From contig MNZB01000003.1 in assembly GCA_001873435.1 (NCBI GenBank), positions 70,427 to 134,426 on the forward strand: 64,000 nucleotides of DNA, in the 5' to 3' direction. Position numbers and translations under genes: made by a program. Source of the DNA: Candidatus Pacebacteria bacterium CG2_30_36_39 (lineage in GTDB: Bacteria > Patescibacteriota > Microgenomatia > UBA1400 > PJMF01). Every line of letters starts with the position of its first letter. Positions within the stretch are counted from its first letter, which is position 1. Below the pieces are notes generated by a model. That model was not told where the DNA came from, did not search any database, and saw nothing but the letters and a program-made list of their open reading frames with translations. Below are positions 42,491 through 47,476 of this stretch, in pieces.

Positions 42491-43258
42491 ATGAGAAGAA
42501 GAGAAAAATTTGTTTTAGCTGCGGCATTTTTGAGTATTGGCCTTTTAGCGGTTCAATATACTATTTTAGAATGGCGTTATTACGCCATAGTTGGTTTGAT
42601 GATAATTACTTATTTTGTTTCTGCTTGGGCTCTACGTGATGATTTACAACGCCATGAATGGTTAACAGTTCTTCCTTTTCCAGTTATTTATACGGCTGCT
42701 GTGGCTTTATTTTATTTTCTATTACCTGGTGCCTTTCTTACTAGAGTAATTTTCTTGGCGCTATTTGGTGTAGGAATGTATGGTCTTTATTTGACTAGCA
42801 ATATTTTTTCAGTTGCCAAAGGTCGCACCATACAACTGTTGTATGCCGCACACGCTGTAGCCTTGTTTTTCACCCTTTTTACTTCAATGCTGCTGACTAA
42901 CACGATCTTCTCGTTACGTCTCCCTTTTTACAGCAATGGGGCGCTTGGTTTTTTAATTCATTTTCCATTAGTAATGATGAGTTTATGGTCTATTAAGTTA
43001 GAGTCATTTGTTGGTAAAGAAATTTTTCATAAAGCTACTTTGTTAACACTTGTGATAGCTGAGCTTATTTCTATGTTATCTCTTTTGCCTTTTCCTGCCT
43101 GGCATAGTGCTCTTTTTGTAATGGGTATTTTGTATATTGGCTTGGGTGTTTTACAAAGTCAGATTAGAGAGCGTCTTTTTCATAATACTTCCAATGAATA
43201 TAGCTTGGTGGCTGTTTTCTTGGCTTTCATTTTTTTCTTACTATTGCCTTGGAAATAG
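42491..43258 (+). CDS. hypothetical polytopic membrane protein
   Basis: 255 aa, 7-8 hydrophobic helices. Confidence 0.55.
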   Translation: MRRREKFVLAAAFLSIGLLAVQYTILEWRYYAIVGLMIITYFVSAWALRDDLQRHEWLTVLPFPVIYTAAVALFYFLLPGAFLTRVIFLALFGVGMYGLYLTSNIFSVAKGRTIQLLYAAHAVALFFTLFTSMLLTNTIFSLRLPFYSNGALGFLIHFPLVMMSLWSIKLESFVGKEIFHKATLLTLVIAELISMLSLLPFPAWHSALFVMGILYIGLGVLQSQIRERLFHNTSNEYSLVAVFLAFIFFLLLPWK

Positions 43259-43298
43259 GGAAGTTATAGCTTATTTTTTCATTTTTTAATCATTTTTT

Positions 43299-43317
43299 TA
43301 GCCTGGATACCAGGCTA
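43299..43317 (+). repeat. perfect palindrome TAGCCTGG-ATA-CCAGGCTA (possible terminator hairpin and repeat family seed)
   Basis: 8-bp arms, 3-bp loop, flanked by T-runs just after the 42491..43258 gene. The half motif recurs at 43506-43517 (GATACCAGGCTA) and 43759-43766 (TAGCCTGG). Confidence 0.5.
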
Positions 43318-43445
43318 GATTTTATAGTAGAGTGCGGTGGAGTACTCGAGAAATATCTCTGGTGAATAAGTATAGGGTTATTAAGCTAAAAATTACTAAT
43401 TTACTCTGGTGAGCTGAAATATTTAAAGGAAAAGTATTTATTGGG

Positions 43446-43568
43446 TGTGGATAAGAAATAAGTTTTGTAGCCGGAAAATGGGGAAGTGATGAACAAAAAA
43501 GGGAAGTGATACCAGGCTAAACAGGGGAAAGTGATATAGTTTGATATAGTCAGATGGATTGTGGAAAA
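43446..43568 (+). repeat. DnaA-box / triple iteron / DnaA-box cluster
   Basis: TGTGGATAA (43446-43454, perfect DnaA box complement). GGGAAGTGAT at 43481-43490 and 43501-43510 (exactly 20 bp apart) and GGGGAAAGTGAT at 43524-43535. TGTGGAAAA at 43560-43568. Confidence 0.5.
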
Positions 43569-44096
43569 CTATAGGCTTTCATGTGAAAAGTTATAGGACT
43601 TATATTTAAGATACCTCGAGTAACGGTGAGGTGTTGATCTAGTTTTATGTAGTACGCTGCTCAGATAAAGCATTAATTCTGCAAGAATAATTCCAGGCAT
43701 AGCTATAAAATTGGGTACAAAATGTCTAGACAGATCTTCTCGAGTAGGGGCAATCATTTAGCCTGGTAATATCAAGTAATAAATTATTGGTAGATATGAT
43801 CTTGTCGGAGAGAGGCAGAAAATAACCCGAATAGGTTTTTTTATCGATCCAAATCTGGTTTTAAAGGCATTTTTGGAAAGAGTGATAAGAAAATATTAAT
43901 TAATTAACAAAGAAAAAGATAAAATACCCCAGCGGGGTGGTAGTAGCGAGAGACTTACTACTCTCACTATTTGTGTGCCAAAACTACTCAGAACTAATAT
44001 GTCGCACAATATAACTTTTGCGACATAGACTATATTCAAAATCCGGAATGTGAGTTTTTCTTAAATATTAGTAATTTAGCTTATCTGATACTTATA

Positions 44097-44108
44097 TTGA
44101 TATATCAA
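44097..44108 (+). repeat. palindromic motif TTGATATATCAA (copy 1 of 4 related sites)
   Basis: Perfect 12-bp palindrome. A second perfect copy at 44241-44252. Related CTATATATCAA copies at about 44746-44757 and 46337-46347. Confidence 0.5.
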
Positions 44109-44305
44109 GGTATTTATTTATTATTTCTCTTCTTCCCTCTTTTTTTGTAAATCTTTTTTTAAGTCAAATACCTGGTTTAAATGTCTTTATTTGGGTTGCC
44201 AAAATCTGTAAAAAATATCTTTGCTAAAAATAGACTTCTGATTGATATATCAAGCTATAAAGCATAGACGATACATTGGTCGTTTAAGCCAGAAAAAGCC
44301 GTTTT

Positions 44306-44331
44306 TGAGGCATTTAGAAGCCTCATTTTTT
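44306..44331 (+). terminator. orphan intrinsic terminator in noncoding region
   Basis: TGAGGC-AUUUAGAA-GCCUCA followed by UUUUUU. No ORF upstream, so it may end a small RNA. Confidence 0.45.
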
Positions 44332-44780
44332 AGGTCTTTTGCAATGAGTTTTATTAATTGTTTTTCAAATCTTTATACTTCCACTTTCTAATCTTTGGCA
44401 AATAAACATTAGAGATTATTTTTTACTAACTAATGTTTTTGCTAACTTTTTTTGTTTTGATCAATCAGTTGATTTTAAAAAATAAAACCGTTTTTGACTG
44501 GCTGATTAATTGGCTTAAATGATGTATAAGATTTGGAGATTTTTTTGGCAGCTACTAAGTAAGTTAATTGCTAAAATAGATTTGTTCGAGAACAAGTCTA
44601 TGTAAAGACATAGGAGAAGAATTTTCTTTGTTACTCAACTACTAGATAAGAACCAGATTGGTTGTCTCGAGTTGACAGCATCCTCTTTTTTATTTTTAAT
44701 ATATCTTGATTTGGCTTAATGTATCAAAATATAGCAGGATAGTTAGAGCTATATATCAAGACATTTTTTCTCATATGGCT

Positions 44781-44809
44781 ATTAGCAGAATATACAATGC
44801 TCTGCTAAT
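44781..44809 (+). other. candidate Xer recombination (dif-like) site, copy A: ATTAGCAGA-N11-TCTGCTAAT
   Basis: 9-bp inverted arms around an 11-bp centre, 200 bp upstream of the recombinase gene. Can be read as 11-bp arms around a 7-bp centre (9/11 match). Confidence 0.4.
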
Positions 44810-45010
44810 GACTCATAGTATATAAATTTCTTTATCGAGTAGAAAGTAGTATTTTTGAAAAAAAACAATCAAATAGTAAGTTTTAATTCTCACTTCTTAG
44901 CTTTAGAAAAGCTGAATATTTTGACTTCCCCCATTATATGTTGAGTTTAGTTATAGAGCAAATAAAAACTTTACCTCGCTGATTGATTTCATTTACGGTA
45001 TAACTTAAGT

Positions 45011-45955
45011 ATGGCTGTTTCTACAGAACCCACTAAGGCTTTAATAGAATTTCTAGAATCAATAGAAGTTGAAAAAAATTTAAGTCAACTTACTTTGAGA
45101 AACTATAGCCATTATTTAAGACGTTTTAACGAATGGTTTGCTCAGCATGGATATAAGGATTTGTCTGAGTTAAACCAAGACAACTTATTAAAATACCGAG
45201 TTTTTCTAGCTAGGTATATTGATGATCAAGGCAGAACTTTATCTAAGAAAACTCAAAGTTATCATATTATTTCTTTAAGATCTTGGTTTAAATGGTTAAT
45301 AAGACATGATGCTGAAGTGCTTCATCCTGAAAAGATAGAGTTACCCAAGGCAGAGTCTACGCCGATGAAATTTGCTTCTGCTGAGAAAATAGAGATTCTC
45401 TTGAGTAAGCCAGATGTATCTGAGCCTCAAGGTTTGCGCGATCGAGCTATCTTGGAGGTTTTATTTTCAACTGGCTTACGTGTTAGCGAGCTTGTGAAGC
45501 TTAATCGAGACCAAATCGATACAAAACGTAGAGAATTTGGAGTGATTGGTAAAGGTAGGCGTCCTCGGGTGGTATTTTTGAGTGATCGGGCTGCTTCTTG
45601 GCTAGAACGTTGGTTGGCAACCAGAGAAGATGATTGGAAGCCAGTTTTTGTTCGTTTCTCTGGTAGTAAAGAAGCCAGGTTTGCTGATGGTACTGAAATG
45701 AGATTAACCACTAGAAGTGTTCAGAGATTAGTAGATCGCTATAGTCGCTTGGCTCATTTGCCTATTAAATTATCTCCTCACGGTATACGTCATAGTTTTG
45801 CCACAGACTTATTAAGCAATGGCGCTGGTTTACGTGATGTTCAAGAAATGTTGGGTCATAAAAATATCGCTACTACCCAAATTTATACTCACGTGACACG
45901 ACTGCAATTACGTAAAATTCATGAAGAACATCACTCTTTGAAAAAAGCGGAATAA
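45011..45955 (+). CDS. xerC: XerC/XerD-type tyrosine site-specific recombinase
   Basis: 314 aa. Core-binding N-domain. Catalytic motifs R..(LRVSEL), H-x-x-R (HGIRHSFAT), LGHKNIATTQIYTHV with the nucleophile Tyr. Confidence 0.85.
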   Translation: MAVSTEPTKALIEFLESIEVEKNLSQLTLRNYSHYLRRFNEWFAQHGYKDLSELNQDNLLKYRVFLARYIDDQGRTLSKKTQSYHIISLRSWFKWLIRHDAEVLHPEKIELPKAESTPMKFASAEKIEILLSKPDVSEPQGLRDRAILEVLFSTGLRVSELVKLNRDQIDTKRREFGVIGKGRRPRVVFLSDRAASWLERWLATREDDWKPVFVRFSGSKEARFADGTEMRLTTRSVQRLVDRYSRLAHLPIKLSPHGIRHSFATDLLSNGAGLRDVQEMLGHKNIATTQIYTHVTRLQLRKIHEEHHSLKKAE

Positions 45956-46287
45956 CTGATTTTTGTTATGTTTATTTATATTAATATTCATATTTAGATA
46001 TATTGTTATATTTAGTATATTTTTGTTTCATTAATACATAATAAACAATATTTTGATCGTAGTAAAAATACATTTTTTTAACTTTCATTTCAATAAAAAT
46101 GTATTTGTTATTTATTACTCCCCTACTCTCTATTTTCTTTATCAATCTTATAAATTTATTTTTTTAATTAAAATAGCTACATTACTAATAATATTTTGGT
46201 GAAGTGGGCTTGTCTTTTAAATATCTAAAATAGCTTGCTATAAAAGTCCAATCATCGAGAGCATCTGGAGAAAATAGGTTATAAGTC

Positions 46288-46316
46288 ATTAGCAGACAGA
46301 TAAAATTACTGCTAAT
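46288..46316 (+). other. candidate Xer recombination (dif-like) site, copy B: ATTAGCAG-N13-CTGCTAAT
   Basis: The same 8-bp inverted arms as copy A, 330 bp downstream of the recombinase gene. Central region differs in sequence and length. Confidence 0.35.
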
Positions 46317-46446
46317 AACCTTTTTTAGCATATATAACCTATATATCAATCTATTTTATTGAATAATATAAAACGCTCTTCAATTGAATAGGCTGGTGGA
46401 ATTTTATTTCAGAGATGGTACAATTCTCTACGTTCTTTAAATATCA

Positions 46447-46523
46447 GGGCCCGTAGCGCAGTTGGTTAGCGCGTCTGTATGGCATACAGAAGGTCAGGGG
46501 TTCGAATCCCCTCGGGTCCACCA
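46447..46523 (+). tRNA. tRNA-Ala (anticodon GGC) with encoded CCA
   Basis: Acceptor GGGCCCG/CGGGTCC with G3:U70, D-arm GCGC-AGTTGGTTA-GCGC, anticodon loop ATGGCAT, T-arm AGGGG-TTCGAAT-CCCCT, ACCA 3' end. Confidence 0.9.
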
Positions 46524-46582
46524 ATTAAATAAATTAAATTACGCACCGTTTTTGAGAAGCTCAGAGGTGCGTTTTTTTAAAC

Positions 46583-47476
46583 TTAAATTACCTCATTCTC
46601 AGCAAGCATAGAAGTGATTTGATAGTTTCTTTCAGCAAGCATCAAGAGAGTTTTTTCTCTGATCAAAAATACATCTAGATCAAAATCAGCTGGTTGATTT
46701 TCAATGGTTAACCATTCAAGATTTTCACCCAAACTTTTGATTACTTGAGCGAGGTCTTGCCAATGCTGTTTGGTCATTATTTCCAATGGCAAAGAATCCC
46801 CATTGACCCCAACGGGAATATGTAAACCAGAGCCTGGCAATTGAGAAATTACTTGATAAATATTTGTTAAAACCTTCTTCCAATTTTCATCAAAAGTATG
46901 TTGGTCAAGACCATGAAGAGTTTTCAATGATTGAGTATATTCTTTAAGCGCATGAACTAGATCAATCATGATGCCAGCAGATACCTTTTCAGCTTGAAGA
47001 GCTTTAACTTGTCTTACTGTGGCTTCTAGCGACCCCACATCTAGTACATTTTCTACTAAGATATGTCCTGGGTATTCCATCGAAACAAGGGTTTGAATTC
47101 TACCAGTTCTTTTTAATTCTGGCTCATGAACTAGTAAATAGTTTCTTGATTTTCCTGCCTGGAATAATTCTGGCCTTACCTTGACTACTGGTTCTAAACC
47201 AGCCATTAATTGATCAAATACAGCTGCTTTGAATTTTTCTAACTTAGAAACAGCAGCTTCTGGACCACCAACTGGACCATGAATTCCTCTGATAGATAAC
47301 AAGGGATTTGTTTTTTCTTTAGCTTGGTTAATTAAATGTTTCCAACCAAGCATCTCAATAGCAATGGTTTCTTCGCCTAGTACTGGTAGGGATTGGGCAT
47401 AAATTCTAGCTAGTTGATCAAAGTTTCCCCATATACCAACTATGTCACTTGAGACTAATACTTCAGGTTTTTTCAT
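46583..47476 (-). CDS. hypothetical protein (possibly TIM-barrel sugar-phosphate isomerase/epimerase-like)
   Basis: 297-aa soluble protein. Fold guess only. No confident motif. Confidence 0.45.
   Translation of the reverse strand: MKKPEVLVSSDIVGIWGNFDQLARIYAQSLPVLGEETIAIEMLGWKHLINQAKEKTNPLLSIRGIHGPVGGPEAAVSKLEKFKAAVFDQLMAGLEPVVKVRPELFQAGKSRNYLLVHEPELKRTGRIQTLVSMEYPGHILVENVLDVGSLEATVRQVKALQAEKVSAGIMIDLVHALKEYTQSLKTLHGLDQHTFDENWKKVLTNIYQVISQLPGSGLHIPVGVNGDSLPLEIMTKQHWQDLAQVIKSLGENLEWLTIENQPADFDLDVFLIREKTLLMLAERNYQITSMLAENEVI

Follow-up and report, generated by a model that had tools for sequence, protein, structure and literature searches.

CIRCE is a palindrome bound by the heat-shock repressor HrcA. 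Its canonical form, TTAGCACTC-N9-GAGTGCTAA, consists of two 9-bp arms separated by a 9-bp gap and has a span of 27 bp (PMC7464140). At dif sites, the arms are conserved, the centre is variable and the flanks are unconserved (PMC2731167), and linkage of dif to the gene for its recombinase is described as typical of xerS/difSL and xerH/difH, which each rely on a single recombinase (PMC5357621, PMC2731167). Both kinds of element appear to lie close together in a 64,000-nucleotide stretch of DNA from Candidatus Pacebacteria bacterium CG2_30_36_39 (contig MNZB01000003.1), the whole of which is called the window here and whose own coordinates are used throughout. In the window, a gene for a Xer-type tyrosine recombinase (xer) is bracketed by two copies, A and B, of an inverted repeat that an earlier note on this DNA had likened to dif. 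The best explanation, which we consider reasonably likely, is that copies A and B are CIRCE-class operators and not recombination sites, and that a separate dif-like sequence of 28 nucleotides upstream of the gene is the substrate of Xer. The features on which this argument turns are as follows.

43999 to 44026, plus strand: dif-like 28-mer, ATGTCGCACAA-TATAAC-TTTTGCGACAT, arranged 11-6-11, 985 bp upstream of the xer ATG.
44781 to 44809, no strand assigned: inverted repeat copy A (site S1), a CIRCE-type palindrome upstream of xer.
45011 to 45955, plus strand: xer, an XerC/XerD-like tyrosine recombinase of 314 amino acids with its catalytic residues intact.
46288 to 46316, no strand assigned: inverted repeat copy B (site S2), 332 bp past the xer stop codon and 131 bp before tRNA-Ala.
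46447 to 46523, plus strand: tRNA-Ala(GGC), a conserved neighbour of xer that has the second repeat on its 5' side in several relatives.

The pair of repeats that the earlier note placed around the 314-amino-acid gene is real. Copy A lies 201 bp upstream of the xer ATG (45011), and the distance from the xer stop (45955) to copy B is that given above. Each copy is 29 bp long (A is ATTAGCAGAATATACAATGCTCTGCTAAT and B is ATTAGCAGACAGATAAAATTACTGCTAAT) and conforms to the pattern ATTAGCAG-N13-CTGCTAAT, with 8-bp arms and an equal gap of 13 bp. This paired pattern occurs twice in the window and not once in 100 shuffles, and the lone 8-mer ATTAGCAG, which is found 10 times against about three expected, is palindromic only at copies A and B.

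Four features suggest that the window repeat belongs with CIRCE. First, its outer hexamers, TTAGCA...TGCTAA, are those of the canonical operator. Second, the 27-bp span and the spacing are shared. The arms differ from the canonical sequence in having G/C rather than C/G at position 7, and we refer to TTAGCAG(TC)-N9-(GA)CTGCTAA as the G-variant or G-type form; a literature search on this sequence returned only primers and unrelated matches. Arm positions 8 and 9 are AA/AG in copy A and AC/TA in copy B, against a consensus of TC. Third, the same palindrome is placed in front of chaperone genes, as detailed below. Fourth, the orthologous sites upstream of xer in three relatives (loci L055, L031 and L034) carry the canonical half-site TTAGCACTC. 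The half-site variants TTAGCAGAC, TTAGCAGTA and TTAGCAGAG also occur at chaperone-linked sites. The window itself contains no canonical C-type CIRCE within three mismatches.

The third of these features emerged from a scan of metagenome contigs for WTTAGCAG-N13-CTGCTAAW, a pattern that leaves the TC/GA positions free. The scan returned at least 120 loci. Among those listed, about 110 sites are intergenic, two loci are of the xer-gyrA kind, and most sites read TTAGCAGTC-N9-GACTGCTAA, on contigs whose G+C content ranges from 25 to 67%. Also among the listed loci, 126 open reading frames (ORFs) start within 150 bp of a site, and these include genes for Cpn10/GroES (20), HrcA (16), HSP20 (10), ClpB-type proteins (7) and Lon (5). 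The palindrome mostly sits right after, or overlaps, a promoter of the TTGACA-N17-TATAAT type. One site (L189) lies directly upstream of a gene for a 242-amino-acid HrcA, and proteins 86-91% identical to this HrcA include some that NCBI names Candidatus Levybacteria, which are Microgenomates. Other short HrcAs encoded behind the palindrome belong to clusters with members named Minisyncoccales, Uhrbacteria and WWE3, and GroES examples behind it include Acidobacteriota and SAR202. The earlier note had taken recurrence of the repeat at many unrelated loci as a sign against recombination; the palindrome does recur in this way, at chaperone-gene promoters, and this counts against the recombination reading and in favour of the operator site that the note had mentioned as a fallback.

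The same loci yielded two side observations on HrcA and its operators. Short HrcA proteins (226-242 amino acids, against about 340) are encoded at L128, L131, L138, L173, L185, L189 and L191, with a G-type CIRCE directly upstream of each, and those that could be named (L189, L138 and L131) are from Patescibacteria. Tandem CIRCE pairs are present upstream of metagenomic groES genes at L105, L110, L181, L130, L125 and L145. In the first four of these, a G-type element (TTAGCAGTC...) stands beside a canonical C-type element (TTAGCACTC...), and in L125 and L145 the second element is G-type-like. Such tandems hint that some bacteria have operators of two specificities or a pair of HrcA-like proteins.

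To see how the repeat is distributed around xer, we searched 80 related loci, at about 9 kb per locus, for TTAGCAG-N13-CTGCTAA with at most one mismatch, and recovered 48 sites compared with none in five shuffles. A site no more than 400 bp upstream of xer, the position of copy A, was scored as S1, and a second site downstream of xer, in the role of copy B, as S2.

Xer at least 63% identical, 46 species: S1 in 21; S2 within 400 bp past the stop in 15; both flanking in 5; a site 1-4 kb away in 9; no site in 10.
More distant Microgenomates, 34 species: S1 in 2; S2 in 1; both flanking in 0; a site 1-4 kb away in 0; no site in 31.

The repeat is present in 36 of the 46 closer species and in 3 of the 34 more distant Microgenomates, all of which keep xer. 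Because sites flank xer on both sides in 5 of 46 and 0 of 34 species, and because 31 of the 34 distant species have no site, bracketing of xer is the exception, and the repeat is specific to one clade, in which it was added to a far older xer locus. The location of the second site differs among relatives. It lies 5-60 bp beyond the xer stop in several relatives, 130-440 bp ahead of a plus-strand tRNA-Ala, 86-90 bp ahead of a minus-strand tRNA-Ala (L029, L038 and L043), or 210-280 bp upstream of gyrA (L019, L020, L022, L025 and L028).

Conservation of the xer-linked repeats is concentrated in the outer 7-8 nucleotides, and the inner 11-13 vary freely. This distribution bears on a reading in which the repeats are not DNA-binding sites but work as hairpins in the RNA transcribed from xer, with copy A forming a structure in the 5' leader and copy B a terminator or 3' stabilizer. 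Both copies do fold into hairpins better than shuffled sequences (z = -2.0 to -4.0), a TTTTTT run on the plus strand begins 4 nucleotides past the stem of copy B, and the second copy of several relatives follows closely on the xer stop. However, the stems are conserved in sequence and show no compensatory change, while the loops are free in sequence and fixed in length, which is the pattern of a palindrome recognized by protein. Loops of 11-13 nucleotides are also poor for intrinsic terminators, the sites occur upstream of promoters and of gyrA as well, and their fixed distance of 21 bp to a second DNA palindrome (see below) has no RNA rationale. We regard RNA hairpins as a very unlikely explanation.

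Copy A lies beside a candidate promoter. The elements near the two copies are these.

44814 to 44819, plus strand: -10-like hexamer CATAGT, 4 nucleotides after copy A, a predicted promoter reading into xer.
46278 to 46283, minus strand: weaker -10-like hexamer TATAAC, 4 nucleotides from copy B and facing the 3' end of xer.
44748 to 44759, no strand assigned: partner box A, GCTATATATCAA, a degenerate form of TTGATATATCAA, exactly 21 bp to the left of copy A.
46338 to 46349, no strand assigned: partner box B, CCTATATATCAA, which follows copy B on its right at a distance of exactly 21 bp.

A hexamer of the form NATART is found 4 nucleotides past the repeat at 20 of 24 xer-upstream sites, and it is conserved in the alignment of the window with L011 and L013. 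With CATAGT as the -10 element, copy A would span about -45 to -17, which is a repressor position, and placement over core promoter elements of this predicted kind is a further likeness to CIRCE. The distance from the end of the repeat to the xer ATG is 12-80 bp in most relatives, and the leader is about 190 nucleotides long in the window, L011 and L013. In these three loci a second conserved -10-like sequence, GGTATAAC, is present at 44996-45010 of the window, 7 nucleotides before the xer ATG and with no Shine-Dalgarno sequence; it may be a proximal promoter that gives a leaderless xer mRNA. On the other side of the gene, the flank of the second site that corresponds to the TATAAC side of copy B faces the minus-strand tRNA-Ala at 86-90 bp in L029, L038 and L043.

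Almost all well-preserved sites of the relatives are accompanied by the 12-bp palindrome TTGATATATCAA at exactly 21 bp from the repeat. This box lies to the left of S1 and to the right of an S2 that follows xer, that is, away from xer in both cases, and it lies to the left of gyrA-upstream sites. The centres of repeat and box are 41.5 bp apart, or about four helical turns, which suggests that two proteins occupy one face of the DNA. Because the 21-nucleotide spacer has no TAnnnT or other -10 signal at the expected positions, ordinary promoter geometry does not account for the constant distance, and the absence of that signal likewise leaves unsupported the idea that the box is a -35 element with its -10 inside the spacer. 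We also considered LexA and HAIR sites and set them aside, since the box sequences match neither consensus. Campylobacter and Helicobacter promoters offer a partial precedent for such a composite, in that they are co-regulated by HspR, acting at an upstream palindromic operator (HAIR), and HrcA, acting at CIRCE, with cooperative binding of the two repressors reported (PMC7464140). The loci share a CIRCE-like operator over a core promoter together with a second palindrome, which here is a fixed 21 bp away, but TTGATATATCAA is unlike HAIR (CTTGAGT-N7-ACTCAAG) and the targets in the window are not chaperone genes.

Further copies of the palindrome are scattered through the noncoding gap upstream of xer.

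44097 to 44108, no strand assigned: perfect palindrome TTGATATATCAA, 70 bp to the right of the dif-like site, in a block (44086-44116) conserved in L018, L025 and L028.
44242 to 44253, no strand assigned: second perfect palindrome TTGATATATCAA, in the noncoding gap, in a block (44240-44332) conserved in several relatives.

Weaker TTGATATATCAA-like copies are present at 44457 and 44716, and the palindromes cluster between the dif-like site and xer. The only composite of box and repeat found outside the xer region is on an unrelated metagenomic contig (L197, 2558-2620), where the two elements are spaced at 23 bp and lie 18 nucleotides past the stop codon of lexA.

Several observations weigh against the assignment of copies A and B to HrcA. 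At the xer-linked sites, arm position 8 is A/T and position 9 is C/A/G, as compared to TC at chaperone genes. Copies A and B reside at xer and before tRNA-Ala and not at the promoter of a chaperone or protease gene such as groES, hrcA-grpE-dnaK, clpB or lon, and the window plus 28 kb of added flanks (92 kb in all) contains no chaperone genes. Neither xer nor tRNA-Ala nor gyrA is a known target of HrcA. Copy B has no evident downstream target in the window, and the relation of the second site to adjoining genes is inconsistent between species. Since GGTATAAC is conserved so near the xer ATG, copy A may control only the upstream promoter. None of the chaperone-gene sites sampled has the partner box, and the composite near xer may therefore be read by different proteins. 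Finally, the presence of HrcA and the form of its operator in this clade are extrapolated from Levybacteria and other Patescibacteria.

The main alternative is that the sites are operators for a lineage-specific regulator other than HrcA. Such a factor would bind together with the protein on TTGATATATCAA in a nucleoprotein complex specific to the dif-xer-tRNA-gyrA region, and the likeness to CIRCE would stem from a common origin of the binding domain or from convergent evolution. In keeping with this idea, arm positions 8 and 9 are unlike those of chaperone-linked sites, pairing with the box at exactly 21 bp is confined to the xer locus (with the lexA-adjacent locus at 23 bp) and is not seen at the groES and hrcA sites sampled, and TGATATA-type motifs recur in the gap around the dif-like site. 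Against it, all 14 outer positions and the spacing equal those of the palindrome that precedes hrcA and groES, Microgenomates included, chaperone-linked sites tolerate the same half-site variants, and some orthologous xer sites contain canonical CIRCE halves. We hold a regulator other than HrcA to be rather unlikely. HrcA remains the protein that we infer to bind copies A and B, which are probably its operators beside a newly recognized dif-xer module.

The earlier note had proposed that the repeats are dif-like sites for Xer, either making the gene an excisable or invertible cassette or comprising one true chromosomal dif and one decoy. There are grounds for such a proposal. The 29-bp sites can be read as 11-7-11, which is within the range of core-site sizes for tyrosine recombinases, they adjoin a recombinase gene about 20 kb from the maximum of cumulative GC skew, and their extended flanks are inverted, in that beyond the arms copies A and B resemble each other in inverted orientation only (A plus strand CTGCTAATGACTCATA, B minus strand CTGCTAATGACTTATA). 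However, a cassette needs identical crossover regions, and the 13-bp centres, AATATACAATGCT and ACAGATAAAATTA, are unrelated whether the latter is taken directly or as its reverse complement (4 of 13 positions identical). Since the centres share no homology, A and B cannot be partners in canonical strand exchange.

The genomic context is equally hard to reconcile with a mobile gene. About 80 species keep the order TPR (minus), YebC (plus), a gene for a 255-amino-acid membrane protein (plus), a mostly ORF-free gap of 1.3-2.7 kb (1.75 kb and noncoding in the window), xer (plus), usually tRNA-Ala(GGC), gyrA (minus), DHH (minus) and gyrB (minus). The xer gene is co-oriented with its upstream neighbour in 80 of 80 species, the A-to-B spacing of 1507 bp and the orientation are identical in 10 of 10 contigs of the same species, and three more same-species loci, fetched via a neighbouring gene, have an unchanged gene order. 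Because synteny, orientation and A-to-B spacing are invariant, we conclude that xer is a fixed core gene that neither moves nor flips. No inversion, excision, empty-site or mobile-element variant between A and B was encountered in the contigs and species examined. Integration of an island at tRNA-Ala is likewise rejected, given that the recombinase lies 5' of the tRNA, that the 3' end of the tRNA was not found to recur as a direct repeat, and that synteny extends over 80 species.

The repeats also fail to behave as a dif site and its decoy. Their copy number and position vary among related genomes, with both copies in 5 of 46 close relatives and none in 10 of them within about 9 kb, and neither copy is co-conserved with xer beyond one clade, as more distant Microgenomates mostly lack the repeat and keep xer. 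A dif site is expected in single copy, but there are two repeats 1.5 kb apart in the window and from zero to two per 9-kb locus in relatives. The inner parts of the arms are the best conserved portions of dif (PMC2731167), and the repeats show the reverse, being conserved in their outer 7-8 nucleotides. In addition, chaperone genes in many phyla are preceded by the same palindrome, and a better dif candidate, single-copy and conserved with xer throughout the group, is present 755 bp upstream of copy A. We conclude that recombination at the repeats, in either version, is highly improbable.

This better candidate is the 28-mer at 43999-44026, which on the comparisons that follow is most likely the substrate of Xer. 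It is intergenic and is the most conserved noncoding block of the gap. Its arms match as an inverted repeat at 9 of 11 positions, and their outer 8 nucleotides are identical. The 28-mer occurs once in 71 of 83 xer loci (the window, L011-L090, L106 and L153), in lineages that include Gottesman-, Collier-, Levy-, Woese- and Shapirobacteria, and most of the loci without it lack upstream sequence. In the 71 loci it resides 298-3938 bp upstream of xer, with a median of about 0.9 kb, and its orientation relative to xer is that of the window in 66 and inverted in 5. It is unique in 92 kb of this genome and is found exactly once per locus in 713 kb of relatives.

Across the 71 species, information content is 1.0-2.0 bits, mostly at least 1.4, at positions 1-12 and 17-26, about 1.0-1.6 bits at positions 13-16, and 0.7 and 1.3 bits at positions 27 and 28, and it falls to near zero past the first one or two flanking bases. 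The centres vary and include TATAAC, TATTAC, TAATAC, TGTATC, TATATC, TATACA and TGATGC, among others. This profile of conserved arms, variable centre and unconserved flanks matches that described for dif.

The classical XerCD/dif system (E. coli GGTGCGCATAA TGTATA TTATGTTAAAT; Magnetospirillum CGTCGCCATAATATACATTATGCGACAA) shares with the 28-mer a length of 28 bp, 11-bp arms, a hexamer centre that varies, unconserved flanks, an intergenic location and proximity to the maximum of cumulative GC skew. The right arm of the 28-mer, TTTTGCGACAT, agrees with the Magnetospirillum dif arm TTATGCGACAA at 9 of 11 positions (PMC2731167). Unlike in XerCD/dif, the inner arm bases of the 28-mer are CAA/TTT rather than TAA/TTA, and the arms have the same outer 8 nucleotides, as would suit one recombinase that acts on both of them in the manner of xerS-difSL and xerH-difH. 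With these systems the locus also has in common the linkage (0.3-4 kb from xer in the 71 loci), near-palindromic arms and a position near the terminus. It differs in that the site is a classical 28-mer of 11-6-11 design, compared with the 31-bp difSL and the difH of 40-mer context, and in that the recombinase is XerD/XerC-like and not XerS- or XerH-like. The analogy to xerS/difSL and xerH/difH drawn in the earlier note thus stands for the locus but not for the site, the dif-like sequence being the 28-mer and not the repeats.

Xer comprises Phage_integrase and SAM_1 domains, conserves the R, K, HxxR, H and Y positions, and scores about equally against the XerD and XerC models, under the equivalog cut-off of both. 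The closest solved structure is E. coli XerD, which aligns end to end (5e-42), and the match to XerH reaches only 9e-12. Proteins identical to Xer are found on groundwater metagenome contigs and in NCBI assembly GCA_002788655.1, and the closest species are Pacebacteria and other Microgenomates (Patescibacteria).

One result weighs against identification of the 28-mer as dif, which is that it matches E. coli dif at 16 of 28 positions, no better than regional chance matches. No mobile-element insertions, inversions or hybrid sites were seen at the 28-mer in the contigs examined. Similarity to the dif sites of E. coli or B. subtilis proved uninformative as a search criterion, with chance matches reaching 18 of 28. 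With identity to E. coli dif at chance level, the case for dif is built on the architecture of the site, its conservation, its copy number and its linkage to xer. A second dif-like site flanking an insertion was not found in any relative, apart from one half-site in L059. The literature searched yielded neither a paper that connects genomes of the Candidate Phyla Radiation with dif nor a chromosome-dimer-resolution site for the uncultivated Microgenomates.

A dif site is expected near the replication terminus. Within the window, GC skew is positive except in the minus-strand gyrase block, and this looked like evidence against a terminus, so we extended the sequence by about 28 kb, to 92 kb in total, with contigs that carry the proteins from the end of the window (stitched from L211 and L216). 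The maximum of cumulative GC skew over the 92 kb falls 2.8 kb past the end of the window, at about 66.8 kb on its scale. The skew is negative over the 12 kb that follow, and the genes, most of which are on the plus strand up to this point, are mainly on the minus strand beyond it. Given the skew peak and the strand switch, replication forks appear to converge about 22 kb from the 28-mer, and the terminus is probably at about 66.8 kb, a result that is supportive and that draws on 92 kb only. The distances between dif and skew features tabulated for proteobacteria are 0.1-100 kb (PMC2731167), a range that includes 22 kb. The earlier note had regarded a terminus far from the locus as incompatible with dif here, and the skew instead places it near.

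Another reading is that the composites of repeat and box are polar fork barriers near the terminus, akin to Ter sites, the targets of RTP and Tus. In its favour, the locus and the skew maximum are about 20 kb apart, the dif-like site is adjacent, the composites are bipartite and asymmetric, and in this genome those of copies A and B have opposed orientations. Yet the composites are direct and not opposed where the second site precedes gyrA, many relatives have a single site, and chaperone promoters remote from any terminus share the motif. The 92 kb examined showed no gene resembling those for RTP or Tus. We give very little credence to a function in fork arrest.

Returning to CIRCE-class operators and a dif-xer module, the arrangement would operate in the following manner. 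An HrcA dimer on copy A would block RNA polymerase and keep xer expression low, and release of the repressor, which for HrcA would come with proteotoxic or heat stress, would allow xer to be expressed. Copy B, probably a second operator, may exert its effect toward tRNA-Ala, give rise to an antisense transcript, or work together with copy A, and the box TTGATATATCAA is presumably bound by a second factor. Xer itself would recombine sister copies of the 28-mer and thereby resolve chromosome dimers.

A more ambitious proposal, which we consider doubtful, is that the repeats, the boxes at 21 bp and the TGATATA motifs of the gap form one nucleoprotein architecture that gates a self-contained dif-xer module near the terminus in Pacebacteria. 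If so, dimer resolution, and possibly gyrase and the tRNA, would be under the control of the heat-shock repressor and a second factor, or alternatively the bound proteins would serve as accessory or topological elements for Xer at dif. Either arrangement would amount to a Xer system gated by stress or dependent on accessory factors, for which there is no earlier description.

Neither CIRCE-type operators nor dif-xer modules are new in themselves. What is new is that CIRCE-like sites occur beside xer, tRNA-Ala and gyrA within a single clade of Patescibacteria, that these sites are strictly paired with a second palindrome, and that there is now a candidate dif consensus for Microgenomates, ATGTCGCACAA-N6-TTTTGCGACAT. 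A pair of palindromes around a recombinase gene is tempting to misread as recombination sites, and the comparison corrects this by pointing to the most conserved heat-shock operator family of bacteria. If HrcA controls xer, together with gyrA or tRNA-Ala in relatives, then the HrcA regulon would reach into chromosome maintenance, which would be unusual for Patescibacteria with their reduced genomes. With the 28-mer motif, one could find the termini of metagenome-assembled genomes, verify assemblies and search for mobile elements that exploit Xer.

Some variation was noted at the edges of the locus. The tRNA-Ala(GGC) beside xer is on the minus strand in eight species (L029, L038, L039, L040, L043, L045, L046 and L050) and on the plus strand in others, which points to small local inversions during evolution of the clade. 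Two same-species contigs (L005 and L010) end at window position 46502 and another (L007) at 46534, so that they break inside or just after tRNA-Ala(GGC), and contig L008 starts at 44059, 33 bp to the right of the dif-like site. These breaks may reflect strain-level variation at the tRNA and the dif-like site; no variant junction was recovered.

Searches of Rfam with 43200-46600 gave only tRNAs, both at gathering thresholds and at E-values up to 1. A perfect DnaA box, TGTGGATAA, is present at 43446-43454, and a conserved near-box at 43560. We considered a replication origin in the gap and rejected it, because DnaA-box matches are not enriched in the window (18 observed, 19.7 expected) and because skew and gene strands indicate converging forks. 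The block at 43465-43610 is noncoding and conserved in at least 13 species, and has neither an Rfam match nor an ORF. It contains two copies of AGGGAAGAG, a conserved direct repeat of TGATATAGTTTGATATAG (43532-43549) that carries the TGATATA motif, the DnaA-box-like ATTGTGGAAAACT (43560-43568), and GTTATAGGAC. Just past the terminator of the membrane-protein gene, at 43475-43535, are three to four iteron-like direct repeats of GGGAAGTGAT, 20-25 bp apart. Terminator-like sites number seven in 43200-46700, against 1.5 expected, and hairpins of this kind with T-runs lie in ORF-free DNA on the plus strand at 44306-44331 and 44661-44690, which suggests unannotated small transcripts in the gap. Upstream of S1, the 3' motif ...CCTCTTTTTT is conserved in relatives.

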